Assembly: GCA_029856155.1 (NCBI GenBank)
Contig: JAHQWL010000023.1
Coordinates: forward strand, 64,001 to 128,000
Direction of reading: 5' to 3'
Source of the DNA: Promethearchaeia archaeon
Lineage (GTDB): Archaea; Asgardarchaeota; Lokiarchaeia; Sigyniarchaeales; SOKP01
Length of the DNA stretch: 64,000 nt
Shown here in pieces: positions 10,508 to 21,977 of the stretch; position 1 is the first letter of the stretch, and each line of letters starts with the position of its first letter. A program made the position numbers and the translations under genes. The notes under the pieces were generated by a model that was not told the origin of the DNA, did not search any database, and was given only the letters and a program-made list of their open reading frames with translations.

Positions 10508-11419
10508 TTATACTAAATGATGAAATTCTTCAGCATTAATAATGACTTCTTTTAAAATTTGAAAGTTTTTATCCTCTCCATGAATTAAAAATATCTTATT
10601 TTTGATTGGAATTGCTGCTTCTTTTCCGATTAAAACCCATTCTTCTTTAGTTAAATTTCTAACTATTGAACCTTCTTTAAATTTAATATAAACTAATGCT
10701 CCTAAAAAACCATTAAATTTAGTTTCTTCAAGTTTCACATCTTCAAAGTCGGGAATTTCATTATTTTTACCTTCATTTTTAATCTCATATTCAGTCTTAC
10801 TCAATAGCAAGTTCAAATTAGCTTGAATTAAATTATTATCATTCTCTATATTTCTTTTATGATTATACTCGAAAATGATGAGACCACATTCCTGTGTAAA
10901 TGTTCCTTTATGACCTATCAGTTCATAATCATATACTATTCGACCTAAAGATTCTGAATGTTCGATAACTTCTGATTTAACTTTCCACCTCTTTGAAATA
11001 AGAGGTTCTATGTATTTTTGAGAACCAGGATGAATAGTATCAATCGTTAACTCTTTTTTTTCTTGATATAGTTTATCTAGAGTATCGCCAATATACAACC
11101 TCTTTTGTTTTAGTTTCTCAATCTTTACTTCCAAATTATCTACTATTTCATTAAAAATTTCCAATGGGGGTTTAGCTATAAATTTCATCCTTCGAGGTTG
11201 TTTCCTTATTTCTAAAATCTCAATCCAACCTTTATCACTTAGTTTTTCTAATATTCCATATAATGTTGTACGTGCAATTTGAAGATTATATTTTAATCTT
11301 CCTACCATATCACCATTATGCCCTCTTTCAACTAGTGCTAAATAGACTGTAGCTTCGTCAGCAGTTAAACCAAAATCTTGTAAATCTTGAATATATATTT
11401 CTTTTTCCTTATCTTTCAT
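10508..11419 (-). CDS. TrmB-type HTH transcriptional regulator with uncharacterised C-terminal domain; paralogue of the C-terminal two-thirds of 17913-19163
   Basis: LQDFGLTADEATVYLALV...IARTTLYGILEKLSDKGWI...FIAKPP; shares CGLIIFEYN and IPDxEDxKxExTK with the 17913 protein. Confidence 0.85.
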   Translation of the reverse strand: MKDKEKEIYIQDLQDFGLTADEATVYLALVERGHNGDMVGRLKYNLQIARTTLYGILEKLSDKGWIEILEIRKQPRRMKFIAKPPLEIFNEIVDNLEVKIEKLKQKRLYIGDTLDKLYQEKKELTIDTIHPGSQKYIEPLISKRWKVKSEVIEHSESLGRIVYDYELIGHKGTFTQECGLIIFEYNHKRNIENDNNLIQANLNLLLSKTEYEIKNEGKNNEIPDFEDVKLEETKFNGFLGALVYIKFKEGSIVRNLTKEEWVLIGKEAAIPIKNKIFLIHGEDKNFQILKEVIINAEEFHHLV

Positions 11420-11461: not shown

Positions 11462-11493
11462 TATATAAATATGTTGTCGAGATAGGACGACAA
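11462..11493 (-). promoter_or_regulatory. TATA box (TTTATATA on - strand) with adjacent TTGTCG-N8-CGACAA palindrome
   Basis: tatataaa at 11462-11469; TTGTC at 11474 and GACAA at 11489; lies between divergent regulator and methyltransferase genes. Confidence 0.65.
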
Positions 11494-11557: not shown

Positions 11558-12259
11558 ATGATAATTGTGAGTAAAAGTAAAAAAATATGTGAAAGAATCC
11601 CTGAAGGTGAAGCAATATTAGATCAGATTGACTTCACAACAGAAGAATATAGTGAAGCATGCAGAAAAATGGAAGGAGAATATCGGCGTTTGATAAATTT
11701 TATATTTAAAAAACTTGATATTAAAGAAAATTCAAAAATTTTAGAGATCGGGCCAGGACCAGGATGGATTGGAATTATGATGGCAAAACAAGATCCTTCA
11801 CTGACAATAATTGGAATTGAACTTTCTAAAGATATGATGCGTGTAGCTAATAAAAACATAAGAAAGGAAGGTATTGATGATCGAATTTCTTATATTCACG
11901 GAAATGCTGAAAATATGTATCAATTTTTAGATAACACATTCGATGTTGTTTTTGGAAATGGTACCCTTCATCATTGGGAAAATCCAGTGAAAATTATTAA
12001 CGAAATTTTTAGAGTTCTTAAACCAAATGGAATTTTTTGTATTTCTGATGGTCGTCGAGACATAAGATTAGGAGCAAAAGTAATTTTTCATACAATGAAA
12101 TGGTTTATCCCTAAATTTATGAGAATTGGTTGGAAAACTTCGATAAATGCGGGATACACACCTGAAGAATTAACAGAAATATTAGATCAATCAGATCTAA
12201 AAGGAAAATATGAGTTAAAAACTGATCTTTTTGATCTATTAGTTTATAATAAAACTTAA
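11558..12259 (+). CDS. Class I SAM-dependent methyltransferase (UbiE-like)
   Basis: ILEIGPGPG motif I, FDVV, LHHW, RVLKPNG. Confidence 0.9.
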   Translation: MIIVSKSKKICERIPEGEAILDQIDFTTEEYSEACRKMEGEYRRLINFIFKKLDIKENSKILEIGPGPGWIGIMMAKQDPSLTIIGIELSKDMMRVANKNIRKEGIDDRISYIHGNAENMYQFLDNTFDVVFGNGTLHHWENPVKIINEIFRVLKPNGIFCISDGRRDIRLGAKVIFHTMKWFIPKFMRIGWKTSINAGYTPEELTEILDQSDLKGKYELKTDLFDLLVYNKT

Positions 12260-17279: not shown

Positions 17280-17822
17280 TTATTCTATTTTTTTATATTT
17301 AAAAATAATACCTTCTTCAATCCAACTCCAATGTAACATTGGTCGTCTAAATTCTCCTTCAAATTCAAAACTAGATTTTTTTATCTGTTCTTGGACTTTA
17401 TTTAATTCAATTCCATAAGAACCTATATGAGTAGCATGATAAGATAAAAATCCGGATTTATCTTTTAAAACTCGATGTATTTCATTTAATAATTTGATTC
17501 TATCGTCTTTATCGAGTAAATGATACACATCATACATTAACACAACGTCTATAAAATTGTTCTTCAATGGAATCGATATTTTTTTCGAAGTCTTTATGAT
17601 TTCGATATTCTTAATATTTTGAGACTTAATTTCAATAGATAATTCCTCTAAATGATCTTCATCGTAATCAAGAGCATAAATTTTACCAGTATTTCCTATA
17701 ATTCGCGAAGCAATTATTGAATATACTCCTGTTCCACATCCAAAATCTAAGATTTTTTGTCCACTTTTAATTCCAAATTCTCTAAGTATACTTTCTCCCT
17801 TTGAATTTAACCATTCTTCCAT
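17280..17822 (-). CDS. Class I SAM-dependent methyltransferase
   Basis: ILDFGCGTG, YALD, EIHRVLK. Confidence 0.9.
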   Translation of the reverse strand: MEEWLNSKGESILREFGIKSGQKILDFGCGTGVYSIIASRIIGNTGKIYALDYDEDHLEELSIEIKSQNIKNIEIIKTSKKISIPLKNNFIDVVLMYDVYHLLDKDDRIKLLNEIHRVLKDKSGFLSYHATHIGSYGIELNKVQEQIKKSSFEFEGEFRRPMLHWSWIEEGIIFKYKKIE

Positions 17823-17912
17823 GTTTATTTCTAATCTTTATTATTTATTAAAATAAAGGATATGAAAAATTTCTATAAAAAGAAAGAATTGTGAAAAATA
17901 TAAAAATAACCT

Positions 17913-19163
17913 TTAAAGTTTTAAGATAATACTCAATAATATTGGAAATTGTTCTTCAGAACCCCAAACGACATAGATTTTATTTTGAATAGGAACAGCT
18001 ACATGCCTAGCCGCCACAATCCAATCCAACCCAACATTATTTCCAGTCTCGGTTTCTTCTTTAAATTTAAAATACATTGTCATTCCTAAATAATCTTGAA
18101 TTTTTGTATCCTCAATTTTAATATCTTCTAGATCTGGAATCGTAAATTCTTTAATATCAAGATCAGGTTGTATCGGTTCTCTCATTTTTTCTGAAGAAAG
18201 CTGTAATGCTGCTCTGATGATAACTTCTTCCTTTATTTTTTTATTATATTCAAAAATAATGAGACCACAATCCTTTTCTTTTCCTACTATTCCAAGGGAG
18301 TTAAAGTCAAATGATTTTTCGCTATATAATTGAAAATCTTTCTTTATTTCTGAGATATCTATCCATCCATTCTCAAGAGTTTCACCCATTATATATCGAA
18401 AACTCTTTAAAATCTTTAATTCCTCTTCTTTTTGTTGAATTCTTTCATCAAATATGCTTGTTAAGGGTCTTGCTACAAAATATTGTGCACTTTTTGGCAA
18501 TAATGGCAATTTAATTATCCATTCTTTACTAATTAAGCGATCAATAATACGATATATAGTTGTTCTTTTAATAGATAAATCTTCATCTAACTCACCTACT
18601 TTTGCCCCTTCATTCCCCTTTCTTAGCAATGTTAAATATACTTTTGCTTCTTCAATACTCAATCCAAATTTAAGTAATCCAAGTTCTTGCAAATTATTAG
18701 TATCATCAAGAAGTATTCTTGGAGTAGCCCATTTTAATTCTTCTACTTTTCCTAATTGGGTATCTAAATCCATATATGGCTTTTTTGTACTTAATTCACT
18801 TAAAGTTCGAGATGCTTCCATCATTCCAAGTCGCATCAATCCATCAGGAGCAATCTTACAAATAATTTTCCTCTCATCGTCTTTAAACCCTAAAATTCCT
18901 CCTTTTTTAATAGGATCTATCCCTACCAATCTTTCAGGAGTACACTGAATTATTAAATATTTTATATCTGAAATTGTAAGAGAAGTATGTTTCATTGATT
19001 TCCAAACTGAATTAATTTCATTAATATCACCACTAATATTCCAATTCTTTGTTGAATATTCTATTTCGTTTTCTCCTTTAATTATTGCTGCTGATATTGT
19101 TTTCGATTCAGACTTTATTAAATTCTTTAGAGCATGCTTTACTTTTTCCATATGTAGAATCAT
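17913..19163 (-). CDS. Profilin-like domain fused to TrmB-type HTH and uncharacterised C-terminal domain
   Basis: aa ~5-135 match the lokiarchaeal profilin pattern as I recall it (SAAII...YSTKNWNIS...W...KYLIIQCTPERLV...GGILGFKDDERKIICKIAPDG...MEASRTLSELSTKKPY); aa ~160-250 FGLSIEEAKVYLTLL...IKRTTIYRIIDRLISKEWI...FVARP is TrmB-like. Confidence 0.8.
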   Translation of the reverse strand: MILHMEKVKHALKNLIKSESKTISAAIIKGENEIEYSTKNWNISGDINEINSVWKSMKHTSLTISDIKYLIIQCTPERLVGIDPIKKGGILGFKDDERKIICKIAPDGLMRLGMMEASRTLSELSTKKPYMDLDTQLGKVEELKWATPRILLDDTNNLQELGLLKFGLSIEEAKVYLTLLRKGNEGAKVGELDEDLSIKRTTIYRIIDRLISKEWIIKLPLLPKSAQYFVARPLTSIFDERIQQKEEELKILKSFRYIMGETLENGWIDISEIKKDFQLYSEKSFDFNSLGIVGKEKDCGLIIFEYNKKIKEEVIIRAALQLSSEKMREPIQPDLDIKEFTIPDLEDIKIEDTKIQDYLGMTMYFKFKEETETGNNVGLDWIVAARHVAVPIQNKIYVVWGSEEQFPILLSIILKL

Positions 19164-19199
19164 TATCTCTTTTTATGTATATTAAAAAAAAAATAAAAA

Positions 19200-19403
19200 T
19201 TATTTTTCTCCAAATTTCTTTTTTATTTCATCTAATACTTTATCATAATAGCTTTTTTCTTTAGATTCTTGAATTTTTGTGAAATATTCCGGCATGATTA
19301 GTCTCTTAGATTCATTTTTTATCTCCTCATCTGTCCAAATTATCCCATCATCCAATATGATACAAGGTATACCATCCAAAAGTTTTATTCGTATCATTTT
19401 CAT
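19200..19403 (-). CDS. Small hypothetical protein (about 67 aa) between actin and the profilin-TrmB gene
   Basis: Track ORF 19200-19493 overlaps the actin 3' end; ATG at 19403 avoids the overlap (MKMIRIKLLDGIPCIILDDGIIW...YYDKVLDEIKKKFGEK). Confidence 0.65.
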   Translation of the reverse strand: MKMIRIKLLDGIPCIILDDGIIWTDEEIKNESKRLIMPEYFTKIQESKEKSYYDKVLDEIKKKFGEK

Positions 19404-19432
19404 CACTTTTAAATATTTTTTGTTGAAACTGT

Positions 19433-20578
19433 TTAAAAGCATCGATGGATAACTTGGGGTCCCATCTCCTTGTATTCTCTTCGAGTAATCCACATTCTAT
19501 GAAATGTTTTTAAGGAACTTAAGATAGATCCTCCTATCCACACAGAATACATTCTTTCTGGAGGAGCGATTATCTTTACATCTATAGATTCAGCAACCTG
19601 TTCTTTTATTTCTCGAGTTAAACGCTCTTTAATTCCGGGAAACATTGTAGAACCGCCTGAAAGGACAATATTACTATAAAGATCTCTGCGTAAATCTACA
19701 TCACATTCAGATATTGCTCCTACCACTTCATCATCTAGAGGAGCTAATTCTTTACCAATCACAGAAGGATTAAATAAGCATTCTGGAGCCAAGAATCTTT
19801 CAATCCCTATTGTGATAGTTTCACCATCAGGAAGCATGAAATTCTTTGCCATACCAGCTACCTTATTTGAAAGTAAAATCTCTTTTTCAGGATCAATAGC
19901 AACATAGCAAAGCTTTTCTTTTATTTCTCTTACAATCTCTTTCTCAGCTGATGTATAAAAGGAATATCCATTTTGACGTAACAATCTCTGTAAATATGTT
20001 GTAACATCCCTTCCAGCAAGATCAATTCTCTGGATTGCATGACTTAAAGCAAATCCTTCAAATATTGGTACTATATGAGCTACTCCATCACCAATATCGA
20101 TTACACATCCTGTTGTTCGACCAGAAGCGTAAAGTGATAATACTGCTTGAGTTGCTATATAAAGCGCCGGAACATTAAATGTTTCGAACATTATTTCTGC
20201 TAGTTTTTCTCGATTTGATCGAGGATTCAATGGAGCTTCAGTTAATAATATTGGGTACTCAGATGGATCAATTCTTAAATCAGTATAAAATGTATAATGC
20301 CAAATTCTTTCCATTGCTGGCCAATCTTCCACAACTCCATGCTCAATAGGAAATTGTAAATTCATTATTCCTTTTAATTCCATCGCTTCTTCACCAATAT
20401 ACCATTCTCGACTATAATCCTTTACATCGGGCATTATGTTTCCATATTTTGGTTTACCAATCACAGTAGGAAACACTGAACGTGGCTGATCTTCTCCTCC
20501 AAATCCATTTTTTGATATTCCGGTCCCATTATCTATAACAATAGCTCTATTATTTCTAAAATCCCCGTTGACTGAAAT
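19433..20578 (-). CDS. Actin (Lokiactin-like), 381 aa with proposed ATT start
   Basis: Frame upstream of the track start encodes AIVIDNGTGISKNGFGGEDQPRSV; also FPIEHG, LLTEAPLNP, QAVLSLYASGRTTG, DIGDG, IKEKLCYVA, LPDG, NIVLSGGSTMFPG, APPER, WIGGSIL, C-terminal HRCF. Confidence 0.97.
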   Translation of the reverse strand: MSVNGDFRNNRAIVIDNGTGISKNGFGGEDQPRSVFPTVIGKPKYGNIMPDVKDYSREWYIGEEAMELKGIMNLQFPIEHGVVEDWPAMERIWHYTFYTDLRIDPSEYPILLTEAPLNPRSNREKLAEIMFETFNVPALYIATQAVLSLYASGRTTGCVIDIGDGVAHIVPIFEGFALSHAIQRIDLAGRDVTTYLQRLLRQNGYSFYTSAEKEIVREIKEKLCYVAIDPEKEILLSNKVAGMAKNFMLPDGETITIGIERFLAPECLFNPSVIGKELAPLDDEVVGAISECDVDLRRDLYSNIVLSGGSTMFPGIKERLTREIKEQVAESIDVKIIAPPERMYSVWIGGSILSSLKTFHRMWITRREYKEMGPQVIHRCF

Positions 20579-20767
20579 TTTAAAACCACCTCTTTTTTTG
20601 ATTATAAGAACTGAATTTTATTAAAGGAATCAATAATTAAATAGATAGTAGACTATTTTTCTTGGAAGATATTCCCAGAAATGATCTAATGTTGATTATC
20701 CATAGAATTCATATTTGATTCCTAAATTTAATAAAACTTTTTCTTGTTGTAATGATATTTTAACTAG

Positions 20768-20801
20768 TATATAAACTTTGTCACATCATCGTGACAAAGT
20801 T
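20768..20801 (-). promoter_or_regulatory. Actin-operon TATA box with abutting perfect 11-bp inverted repeat
   Basis: AACTTTGTCAC-atcatc-GTGACAAAGTT at 20774-20801; tatataaa (TTTATATA on -) at 20768-20775. Confidence 0.75.
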
Positions 20802-20912
20802 GTGCCATTAATATAACAATTTAAAAAAAAATATTTGAAAATTAGTATTATTTGAATTGACGGCTCTATATACCTTATAATGTTTATAGGAATAATTAAA
20901 TTTAAATAAAAA

Positions 20913-21977
20913 CTATTTTTTTAGCAGATTTATCAACTTTTTTACTATTAGGTCCCCCATTTCTCTTGTTGTTAGTGTCTTAAAAGTTTTATTCTCAATA
21001 TCTATGGTTCTTCCTTCGTTAAGAGCCTCTTCCACAGATTTTTCAATTAAATTTCCAATTTCTGGAGAATTAAATGATTCCTGCATCATTAATTTTACAC
21101 TTAAAATAGTACCTATTGGATTTGCAATATTTTTACCAGCAATATCAGGAGCCGAACCATGTATAGGTTCATACATAGACACATTTCCTGGATTTATATT
21201 TCCACTAGCGGCCATTCCTAAACTACCAATAAGAAAGGCGCCTTCATCACTAGTAATATCACCGAACATATTGCCTGTAACTACAGTTTCGTAAGAATAG
21301 GGAGCACGAATTAGCCATTGACAAAAAGCATCGATATAGACATCCTCTTTCTCGATATCAGGATAATCATTTCCAATTCTATGAAAGATCGAGCGCCAAA
21401 ATTGACTTGCTTTTATAACATTTGCTTTATCTACAGATGTTATTTTCTTATGGCCATTTTTCTTCGCAAATTCATAAGCATATCGTATAATTCGTTCACA
21501 CCCCTTTTTAGTATAACGCATTACACTTTCTGCAATATCTTCTGATATTTCTCCTATTCCTTTATATATTCCTTCTGTATTTTCTCTAATAATGGTGAAA
21601 TCAATACCTTTTCCTATAAATTCTTCTTTAAGTGGGCATCTATCACGTATATGATCATATAACTTAATTGGTCTTATATTTACATATAGATCTAAATCCT
21701 GTCTTATCTTTAAGATTGCAGATTCAACAACTCCGGGGGGTAAATCAGGAAGTCCAATAGCACCAAATAATAGAGAATCAGAATTTTTAATAATCTCAAA
21801 TGTCTTCTTAGGAAGACTTTCACCACATTTTTTCCATACATTCCCTCCCGCGGGGGCATTTTTAAATTCAAAATCAAAATCAGTATACTCAGAAATTGTC
21901 TTTAGAATCTTTATCCCTTCTTCTACTACTTCTAATCCACATCCATCACCATGAGTGATGGCTATTTTTTTTACCAT
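20913..21977 (-). CDS. leuB: 3-isopropylmalate dehydrogenase
   Basis: GDGCGLEV, IRENTEG, VDKANV, NMFGDITSD, YEPIHGSAPDIAGKNIANP; operon context. Confidence 0.9.
   Translation of the reverse strand: MVKKIAITHGDGCGLEVVEEGIKILKTISEYTDFDFEFKNAPAGGNVWKKCGESLPKKTFEIIKNSDSLLFGAIGLPDLPPGVVESAILKIRQDLDLYVNIRPIKLYDHIRDRCPLKEEFIGKGIDFTIIRENTEGIYKGIGEISEDIAESVMRYTKKGCERIIRYAYEFAKKNGHKKITSVDKANVIKASQFWRSIFHRIGNDYPDIEKEDVYIDAFCQWLIRAPYSYETVVTGNMFGDITSDEGAFLIGSLGMAASGNINPGNVSMYEPIHGSAPDIAGKNIANPIGTILSVKLMMQESFNSPEIGNLIEKSVEEALNEGRTIDIENKTFKTLTTREMGDLIVKKLINLLKK

Follow-up and report, generated by a model that had tools for sequence, protein, structure and literature searches.

An accessory actin and a profilin-TrmB fusion encoded side by side in a Lokiarchaeial genome: a candidate actin-responsive transcription factor

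Asgard archaea possess a dynamic, eukaryote-like actin cytoskeleton that is regulated by profilins and gelsolins. The Asgard profilins that have been characterised, namely, Loki profilin-1 and -2 and the Odin, Thor, and Heimdall proteins (structures 5YED, 5YEE, 5ZZB, 5ZZA, 7PBH, and 6YRR), are stand-alone proteins of ~120 to 150 amino acids (aa). In the cassette described here, which lies in a 64,000-nucleotide (nt) stretch of DNA from a Promethearchaeia archaeon (contig JAHQWL010000023.1; hereafter, the window, within which all coordinates are counted), a profilin domain is instead the N-terminal module of a predicted DNA-binding protein of 412 to 416 aa and is followed by a conserved linker, PYMD...LGK. 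The gene for this fusion stands downstream of an actin gene with a conserved palindrome at its promoter, and the protein has, in our estimate, about an even chance of being an actin-monomer-responsive, probably autoregulatory TrmB-type factor with profilin as its input domain. The domain is like the stand-alone Asgard profilins in its fold, its sequence homology, and its modelled contact with the barbed face of actin.

The remainder of the fusion is closest to the regulators TrmB, TrmBL1/Tgr, and TrmBL2, with which it shares a PF01978 winged helix-turn-helix (wHTH), a long helix, and a likeness to TrmBL2 that extends from the helix-turn-helix (HTH) to the end of the protein. TrmBL1 and Tgr bind the Thermococcales glycolytic motif (TGM), TATCAC-N5-GTGATA, near the transcription factor B (TFB) recognition element (BRE) and TATA box; sites upstream of BRE/TATA are associated with activation and sites downstream with repression, and autoregulation is known in the family (PMC4158304). 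The operators of this family are palindromes of the type TCAC-N5/6-GTGA beside BRE/TATA, as is the site in the window, at which binding is predicted. Unlike the TrmB regulators, the fusion has no detected sugar-binding C-terminal domain and carries an extra N-terminal domain of a protein-binding kind; moreover, TrmB targets sugar metabolism, whereas the predicted target of the fusion is a cytoskeletal gene.

In animals, G-actin controls actin-gene transcription through MRTF-SRF. The cassette would be analogous in logic, with a G-actin-binding module attached to the transcriptional control of an actin gene, but the fusion has no homology to MRTF-SRF, has no RPEL motif or MADS box (Pfam, E ≤ 1), acts in a cell without a nucleus, and would hold sensor and DNA-binding domain in one polypeptide; its target, in addition, is an actin paralogue and not the main actin. 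In the type II plasmid partition loci ParMRC, too, a promoter-overlapping cis site is followed by the gene of an actin-fold ATPase and then by that of a DNA-binding adaptor, which engages the barbed-end groove. That adaptor, however, combines a ribbon-helix-helix with a C-terminal helix, whereas here a wHTH is combined with a profilin domain, and in place of ParM and iterons the cassette has a eukaryote-like actin, a single palindrome, and a chromosomal-looking context. In Haloarchaea, transcription of the cytoskeletal gene ftsZ2 is regulated by CdrS, a small ribbon-helix-helix protein without a cytoskeleton-binding domain, an architecture that, unlike that of the fusion, implies no sensing of a subunit pool (PMC7439475). 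A full-text literature search returned no account of a regulator fused to profilin, of archaeal transcription that responds to actin, or of a transcription factor in any prokaryote whose input is the state of a cytoskeletal protein; an earlier interpretation of this locus that was made from the letters of the DNA (the sequence-only reading) knew of no such system either.

The cassette consists of three co-directional minus-strand genes, in the order Lokiactin-type actin, small open reading frame (ORF), and profilin-TrmB fusion, with intergenic gaps of 29 nt (actin/small ORF) and 36 nt (small ORF/fusion). The context looks chromosomal, with genes of leu biosynthesis adjoining. The features of the cassette and its promoter are the following:

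20774 to 20801, no strand assigned: candidate operator, a perfect inverted repeat of two 11-bp arms around a 6-nt spacer, with the core TGTCAC-N6-GTGACA (repeat search)
20768 to 20775, minus strand: TATA box TTTATATA (TTTAAATA in most relatives), its position relative to the half-site being kept (sequence read)
19433 to 20578, minus strand: accessory Lokiactin-type actin paralogue, 381 aa, ATT start (Pfam Actin, E = 2e-118)
19200 to 19403, minus strand: small cassette-specific protein, 67 aa long, or 65 aa if translation begins at the second ATG (no Pfam match)
17913 to 19163, minus strand: fusion gene, a 416-aa ORF (ORF listing)
18780 to 19163, minus strand: profilin domain of the fusion, residues 1 to 128 (phmmer, E = 1e-7; Foldseek TM score, 0.85; pLDDT, about 85)
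18705 to 18779, minus strand: conserved linker PYMD...LGK, residues 129 to 153 (alignment of relatives)
18468 to 18704, minus strand: TrmB-type wHTH, residues 154 to 232, with a nearly invariant recognition helix, KRTTIYRIIDRL (Pfam PF01978)
17913 to 18467, minus strand: long helix and C-terminal alpha/beta domain, residues 233 to 416, with the stop codon (alignment, models)

The sequence-only reading had named the three adjacent genes (actin, 67 aa, and 416 aa), a perfect 11-bp inverted repeat abutting the TATA box, and a profilin-like N terminus joined to a TrmB-type HTH, and each of these was found. Since the relatives of the fusion begin at the second ATG (19151), which gives 412 aa, the protein is probably of this length and not 416 aa.

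In a phmmer search of the PDB, residues 6 to 125 of the fusion matched the solved Asgard profilins 5ZZB (E = 1e-7), 5YED (E = 1.9e-7), and 5ZZA_P (E = 2.6e-6), as well as the Thorarchaeota profilin 7PBH (E = 2e-4). The AlphaFold2 model of the fusion, built with 34 homologues, had a mean predicted local distance difference test score (pLDDT) of 71, rising to about 85 over residues 1 to 125, and laid out a profilin topology (residues 1 to 125) and a low-confidence linker (residues 129 to 165), after which come the winged helix, the long helix, and the C-terminal domain with its alpha/beta fold. Comparison of the N-terminal domain by Foldseek placed the Odin and Loki profilins on top (for Odin profilin 5ZZA_P, a template modelling [TM] score of 0.85 and a root-mean-square deviation of 1.8 Å over 117 columns) and then the eukaryotic profilins (E of about 1e-5), with Roadblock and CodY, a GAF-wHTH regulator, among the weaker matches. 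The domain is 25 to 28% identical to the solved Asgard profilins and is the most variable part of the fusion in the alignment of relatives. The linker holds the most conserved residues of the N-terminal half, with P129, Y130, L137, G138, and K139 invariant or nearly so; its pLDDT was low in the fusion folded alone, and it is followed immediately by helix 1 of the winged helix. The same genome encodes two other extended proteins with a profilin domain, and in both the PYMD...LGK motif comes after that domain.

The sole Pfam match in the fusion was TrmB (PF01978), which covered residues 163 to 219 (E = 1.1e-10) and, at 41.6 bits, lay above the gathering cutoff of 25.6. A helix at residues 234 to 259 follows the winged helix in the AlphaFold2 model, as does the dimerisation helix in TrmB. 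The best Foldseek match for the model of residues 155 to 416 was TrmBL2 (5BPD; ~300 columns, E = 2e-4, probability of 0.98 to 0.99), with a low TM score, the domain orientations being different. No Pfam family, and among them no sugar- or effector-binding domain, matched residues 238 to 416, and a wide structural search for the C-terminal fold (sub-model of residues 134 to 262) was dominated by the winged helix and otherwise gave only Z scores of about 6 to unrelated alpha/beta proteins. In lacking a sugar-binding subdomain, the fusion resembles TrmBL2-like members of the family. The C-terminal domain, which includes the motifs EKDCGLIIFEY and WGSEEKFP, is the best-conserved part of the protein after the HTH.

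Contact between the cassette actin and the N-terminal part of the fusion was modelled by complex prediction, with the actin and fusion residues 1 to 165 each supplied as an alignment and with three controls. The complex scored 0.75, compared with 0.01 for the best control; 58 of 80 solved complexes attained that mark, as did 2 of 110 mismatched pairs, and the result may here partly reflect memory of the solved Loki and Odin profilin-actin complexes. The runs shared at least 75% of their contacts, and the pLDDT of the partner was at least 77. The actin side of the modelled interface comprised residues 120, 173 to 179, 293 to 296, 358 to 373, and 378 to 381, which, with our own estimate of the numbering offset, we take to be the site on subdomains 1 and 3 that profilin classically occupies. 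The fusion side comprised sheet residues 60 to 84, the C-terminal helix (residues 109 to 122), and linker residues 129 to 140, the last of which had the lowest expected error among the modelled contacts. The placement at the canonical site is the one expected if, as the sequence-only reading held, the fusion reads the G-actin pool through its profilin domain, and the model supports binding to the actin barbed face without amounting to a demonstration of it.

The palindrome at the actin promoter is formed by the arms AACTTTGTCAC (20774 to 20784) and GTGACAAAGTT (20791 to 20801), which are separated by 6 nt and are 100% complementary. It overlaps the TATA box, TTTATATA, by two bases, and its proximal arm occupies the BRE position. 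The 7+7 core was expected 0.00 times in shuffles of the window, and the 4.1-Mb genome contains a single copy even of the shorter 5+5 core, GTCAC-N6-GTGAC. When the window was compared with 26 further cassette promoters from four genera, 24 of the 27 promoters had TGTCAC-N6-GTGACAA followed within 2 to 3 bases by TTTAAATA, and the remaining three had rearranged copies of the GTGACAA half-site adjoining the TATA box. Across the 24 aligned promoters, the arms carried 1.3 to 2.7 bits per position and the spacer carried 0.1 to 0.6. Because the arms are invariant, the spacer is free, and the position against the TATA box is fixed, the pattern points to a predicted protein-binding site and not to an RNA hairpin.

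Two other explanations of the palindrome were rejected. A hairpin in RNA is contradicted by the lack of compensatory changes in the arms, by the free spacer, and by the placement of the site upstream of the TATA box; and a terminator of leuB, or of whatever gene lies upstream, is contradicted by a T9 run that separates leuB from the palindrome and by relatives with unrelated upstream genes, in which the palindrome stays with the actin TATA box. Some relatives have up to three GTGACAA repeats, and a further block, TTGTnAn, reached 0.6 to 1.1 bits per position in the 24 promoters against a near-zero background; in the window it is weak and corresponds to the following feature:

20813 to 20820, minus strand: possible auxiliary third half-site, ATTGTTAT (TTGTCAC in several relatives), ~22 bp upstream of the left arm

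A related regulator in the same window provided a comparison for the DNA-binding module. Its gene and candidate operator are the following:

10508 to 11419, minus strand: 303-aa TrmB-like regulator that shares the wHTH and the C-terminal domain of the fusion and has no profilin domain (tblastn, Pfam)
11474 to 11493, no strand assigned: sister operator TTGTC-N10-GACAA by the TATA box of the paralogue (motif search)

The paralogue (Pfam TrmB, E = 5.5e-11) is 41% identical to the fusion in the HTH and 37% identical in the C-terminal domain (tblastn). Exactly two copies of TTGTC-N10-GACAA occur in the genome, one at the TATA box of the paralogue and one at the actin promoter; the count itself is background (0 to 6 in controls of the same composition), whereas the placement is not. 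Recognition helices and inner operator bases differ together between the two regulators. The sister motif is thus good comparative evidence that regulators of this family bind such palindromes at their own promoters, and the site of the paralogue fits a family of autoregulating factors. The sister operator lies within a divergent intergenic region that is shared with a methyltransferase gene (11558 to 12259).

A total of 149 homologues of the fusion were found, all full length and 47 to 92% identical, and those that were annotated had been named only as HTH proteins. At six loci retrieved from relatives (49 to 84% identity), the actin gene, an ORF of 64 to 69 aa (absent in one), and the fusion gene stood in the same order throughout, between flanks that were unrelated to one another; no plasmid or virus genes were seen in the loci examined (the window and the six relatives). 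In a profile search with the fusion family of 400 Asgard genomes, 134 of which belong to the GTDB family of the window, full-length fusions were confined to that family, with ~46 loci in 45 of the 134 genomes, in four genera. None was found in the 266 other Asgard genomes, where the few matches covered the profilin domain only. At 42 of the 46 loci, the gene immediately upstream, in the same orientation, encodes an actin, and the other four loci may lie at contig ends. The linkage between actin and fusion that had been anticipated for relatives therefore held at all six retrieved loci and at 42 of 46 in the family, but as an expectation for Asgard genomes at large it stood for one GTDB family only. 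Among five fusion-free genomes of the same genus, only one yielded the leuB gene of the flank and none yielded the methyltransferase gene, so that a comparison with empty sites gave no insertion boundary.

One relative (G240, contigs C16 and C47) has two complete actin-fusion cassettes, and another (G276:C7, 296755 to 297153) has two tandem copies of the small ORF; the cassette thus appears to undergo duplication as well as loss. A protein of ~196 aa with an HD domain is encoded 3 to 5 kb downstream of the fusion in the loci of five relatives (L001, L002, L005, L007, and L009), in four of which a YdjM-family membrane protein was also called, the flanks being otherwise different; these genes may be further associates of the cassette.

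The best solved match of the cassette actin was the "HC1 actin" chain 9WC4 (E = 3e-177). The genome of the window encodes another actin on contig C4, a core Lokiactin with an ATG start that is 85% identical to the cassette actin, and a motif search of the 4.1-Mb genome together with inspection of the core promoter revealed no operator there. Nearly every genome of the GTDB family has such a core Lokiactin, which scored almost identically throughout in an actin search, and the fusion-carrying genomes have the second actin directly upstream of the fusion on the same strand. A tree built from 21 core actins and 21 cassette actins set the two groups apart by a branch with a Shimodaira-Hasegawa-like approximate likelihood ratio test (SH-aLRT) value of 100; this was a quick tree with unreliable rooting, the outgroup branch being very long. 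The core actins were almost identical across genera, several of them exactly so, and the end branches of the cassette actins reached 0.14. Because a near-invariant core Lokiactin, 85% identical, is encoded elsewhere, the cassette actin is, by these comparisons, an accessory, faster-evolving paralogue that is distinct from the main Lokiactin of the cell. The two actins of the genome differ at 62 positions, none of which is among the 31 residues of the modelled interface; eight positions are signatures of the paralogue, and three of these (46, 47, and 53) lie in the region of the DNase I-binding loop (D-loop). Since the differences spare the modelled interface, the profilin domain, if it binds actin, should read the total monomer pool without distinguishing the paralogue.

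The start of the cassette actin was reassigned. The ORF finder had placed it at GTG 20476, and the conserved phosphate-1 loop is encoded in frame further upstream; an in-frame read found no ATG, GTG, or TTG between the preceding stop codon and this loop. The ATT at 20576 to 20578 yields a normal 381-aa actin when taken as the start and is preceded by the following feature:

20586 to 20592, minus strand: Shine-Dalgarno-like GAGGTGG, 7 to 8 nt before the ATT and kept in the loci of the genus of the window (g1)

The codon at the homologous position was ATT in 11 of 11 loci of this genus and in 2 loci of another genus (loci other than the window: L013 to L022, L027, and L032), and TTG or ATG in most other cassette loci; the most divergent cassette actins start with ATG at a different N terminus. 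Because the codon is kept across the loci of relatives, comparison identifies ATT as a conserved and truly used weak start codon of the cassette actin. Following the strong GAGGTGG, it looks like a deliberately weak start on the actin gene. The distance from operator to start is ~190 nt in the window and ~60 nt in some relatives. The window and about one-third of the relatives have ~135 nt of extra leader (20600 to 20765, minus strand, in the window) between the operator and TATA box and the actin start; it contains an 8-codon ORF that begins with ATG. No Rfam RNA family matched within 17700 to 21000 at E ≤ 1.

At the other end of the cassette, the regulator gene is preceded by the following feature:

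19184 to 19199, minus strand: oligo-T run T5-A-T10, then TATA-like TTTAATATA (sequence read; loci of relatives)

A run of T7 to T13 was present at the junction between the small ORF and the regulator (or between actin and regulator where the small ORF is missing) in five of the six relatives' loci, and in the sixth it lay one gene earlier, between the actin gene and the small ORF. Sequences resembling a TATA box and a Shine-Dalgarno element follow the run. Oligo-T runs can terminate archaeal transcription, and this one is a putative terminator or attenuator that may be followed by an internal promoter for the regulator gene. Expression of the regulator may accordingly depend on partial read-through, on a promoter of its own, or on the two together. 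The sequencing runs that were listed for this sequence were DNA metagenomes from marine sediment, salt marsh, and soil, with no RNA run among them. Homologues of the small protein (22 matches in 21 genomes) were all encoded between an actin gene and a fusion gene, in about half of the cassettes, and neither a Pfam family nor a usable Atlas lead was obtained for it.

The favoured mechanism, in which DNA binding at the operator, actin binding, and the coupling of the two are what we infer from these data, would run as follows. The factor, as a dimer or higher oligomer, would bind TGTCAC-N6-GTGACA at the BRE position of the actin-paralogue promoter and thereby control recruitment of the TATA-binding protein (TBP) and TFB. 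Its profilin domain and PYMD...LGK linker would bind the barbed face of monomeric actin, a surface at which the paralogue and the core actin do not differ. Because the linker runs straight into the winged helix, actin occupancy could be passed through it and alter DNA binding or contact with TFB. Expression of the paralogue, of the small protein, and, by read-through, of the factor would in this way be tied to the free-actin pool. The sign of regulation is not readable from the sequence, and activation and repression are both possible, since sites upstream of the TATA box can mean activation under the TrmB-family rule.

Three parts of the scheme put forward in the sequence-only reading need qualification on these results. 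An actin operon under the control of the fusion was proposed, and the actin gene is indeed present, but it encodes an accessory paralogue, and the promoter of the core actin has no operator. Feedback control was proposed, and its direction could be activation and not only repression. A single operon was assumed, but the conserved oligo-T run sets the regulator gene apart. Several observations weigh against the mechanism as a whole: separate transcription beyond the oligo-T run would weaken autoregulation; the palindrome lies ~190 nt upstream of the actin start, which means a long leader if the promoter is there; the complex score may owe something to the solved structures; Pfam Profilin (PF00235) had no match in the fusion at E ≤ 1; the profilin fold falls within a broad class of sensor-like folds, Roadblock being among the fold matches; the C-terminal domain, which the profilin-less paralogue shares, could hold a separate small-molecule input; and the cassette is patchy even within one genus and therefore dispensable.

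If the mechanism is correct, this may be the first prokaryotic circuit in which the state of the cytoskeleton controls transcription, and it would be an independently arisen functional analogue of animal MRTF-SRF, offering a compact and testable case of cytoskeleton-to-transcription signalling. The new element would be a protein-binding, eukaryote-type cytoskeletal input domain on a one-component regulator of the TrmB family. It would also follow that Lokiarchaeia diversify their actin isoforms and provide some with regulators of their own, and that the Loki-type profilin has been reused as a portable actin-targeting module in a methyltransferase, GTPases, a coiled-coil protein, and HTH proteins. 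The significance is tempered by the presence of the cassette in part of one family only and by its concern with a paralogue and not the main actin. The parts are small and look soluble, and the key claims are therefore testable in vitro without culturing the organism.

Two alternatives keep the factor as a regulator of the actin gene and remove actin as its signal. The real signal could be a small molecule at the C-terminal domain, with the profilin domain serving localisation on actin, a profilin role, or oligomerisation. This is unlikely, though several observations favour it: the conservation of the C-terminal domain is second only to that of the HTH, and the domain is shared with the profilin-less paralogue; the profilin domain varies more than any other part of the fusion; and C-terminal effector domains are in use among members of the TrmB family (PMC4158304). 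The C-terminal domain of the fusion, however, matched no family or fold that is recognised as ligand binding; the actin linkage, which held wherever it could be checked, would need another explanation, and a conserved linker that is modelled on actin leads straight into the HTH. Alternatively, the N-terminal domain may have kept the profilin fold and lost actin binding, serving for sensing or dimerisation in a general way, as GAF and Roadblock domains do in other regulators, so that the actin neighbourhood merely reflects the gene that the factor regulates. The absence of a Pfam Profilin match, the appearance of Roadblock and CodY among the weaker fold matches, and an identity of only 25 to 28% to solved Asgard profilins would all fit, but it is with Asgard profilins in particular that the domain shows sequence homology, the complex model has the canonical interface and scored far above the controls, and the PYMD...LGK motif is common to other extended profilins and to a profilin-methyltransferase fusion described below; loss of binding thus seems quite improbable.

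A different alternative is that the cassette is a ParMRC-like adaptor system between DNA and actin, in which the palindrome is centromere-like, the paralogue forms D-loop-variant filaments, and the fusion acts as a ParR- or formin-like protein at barbed ends, moving or anchoring DNA and also autoregulating its promoter. The DNA-bound fusion would hold the barbed ends of filaments or feed them monomers through its profilin domains. The order of site, actin, small gene, and DNA-binding barbed-face binder mirrors parC-parM-parR, the operator is unique in the genome, many relatives have extra half-sites or direct repeats, the signature substitutions at D-loop positions 46, 47, and 53 suggest altered filament contacts, the cassette is accessory and patchy, and TrmBL2, the best structural match, is a chromatin protein. 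The site is nevertheless a single palindrome, without an iteron array, that always abuts the TATA box, and the chromosomal-looking context by leu genes, with no plasmid or virus genes in the loci examined, is not that of ParMRC. The profilin-less paralogue has a similar site at its own promoter with no actin nearby, and the DNA module therefore looks like that of an ordinary autoregulating factor. To our knowledge, known profilins do not by themselves hold filament ends. We accordingly regard both the adaptor role in general and the capture or feeding of filament ends in particular as very doubtful, and the actin-monomer-responsive factor is retained as the favoured reading.

The Loki-type profilin family is small, with 149 clusters among 1.84 billion representatives, and several other architectures were observed in it. 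A second profilin fusion of 437 aa is encoded in the same genome (contig C2, 4540 to 5853, plus strand; L011:1541 to 2854) and consists of an N-terminal profilin domain, 46% identical to that of the cassette fusion, an EPYLD...LGK linker, and a leucine carboxyl methyltransferase (LCM) domain (PF04072, E = 2e-31). It has 367 homologues, with full-length matches down to 42% identity in metagenome-assembled genomes labelled Promethearchaeota. Profilin binds next to the C terminus of actin, and for this reason actin could be the methylation target of the profilin-LCM fusion. Among the proteins P0269, P0278, P0317, P0352, and P0370, the Loki-type profilin domain was also found in a C-terminal position in Ras/Roc-like GTPases, in a 770-aa coiled-coil protein, and in a 734-aa protein whose winged helices include TrmB-like ones, and, judged by these architectures, it looks like a portable actin-targeting module.

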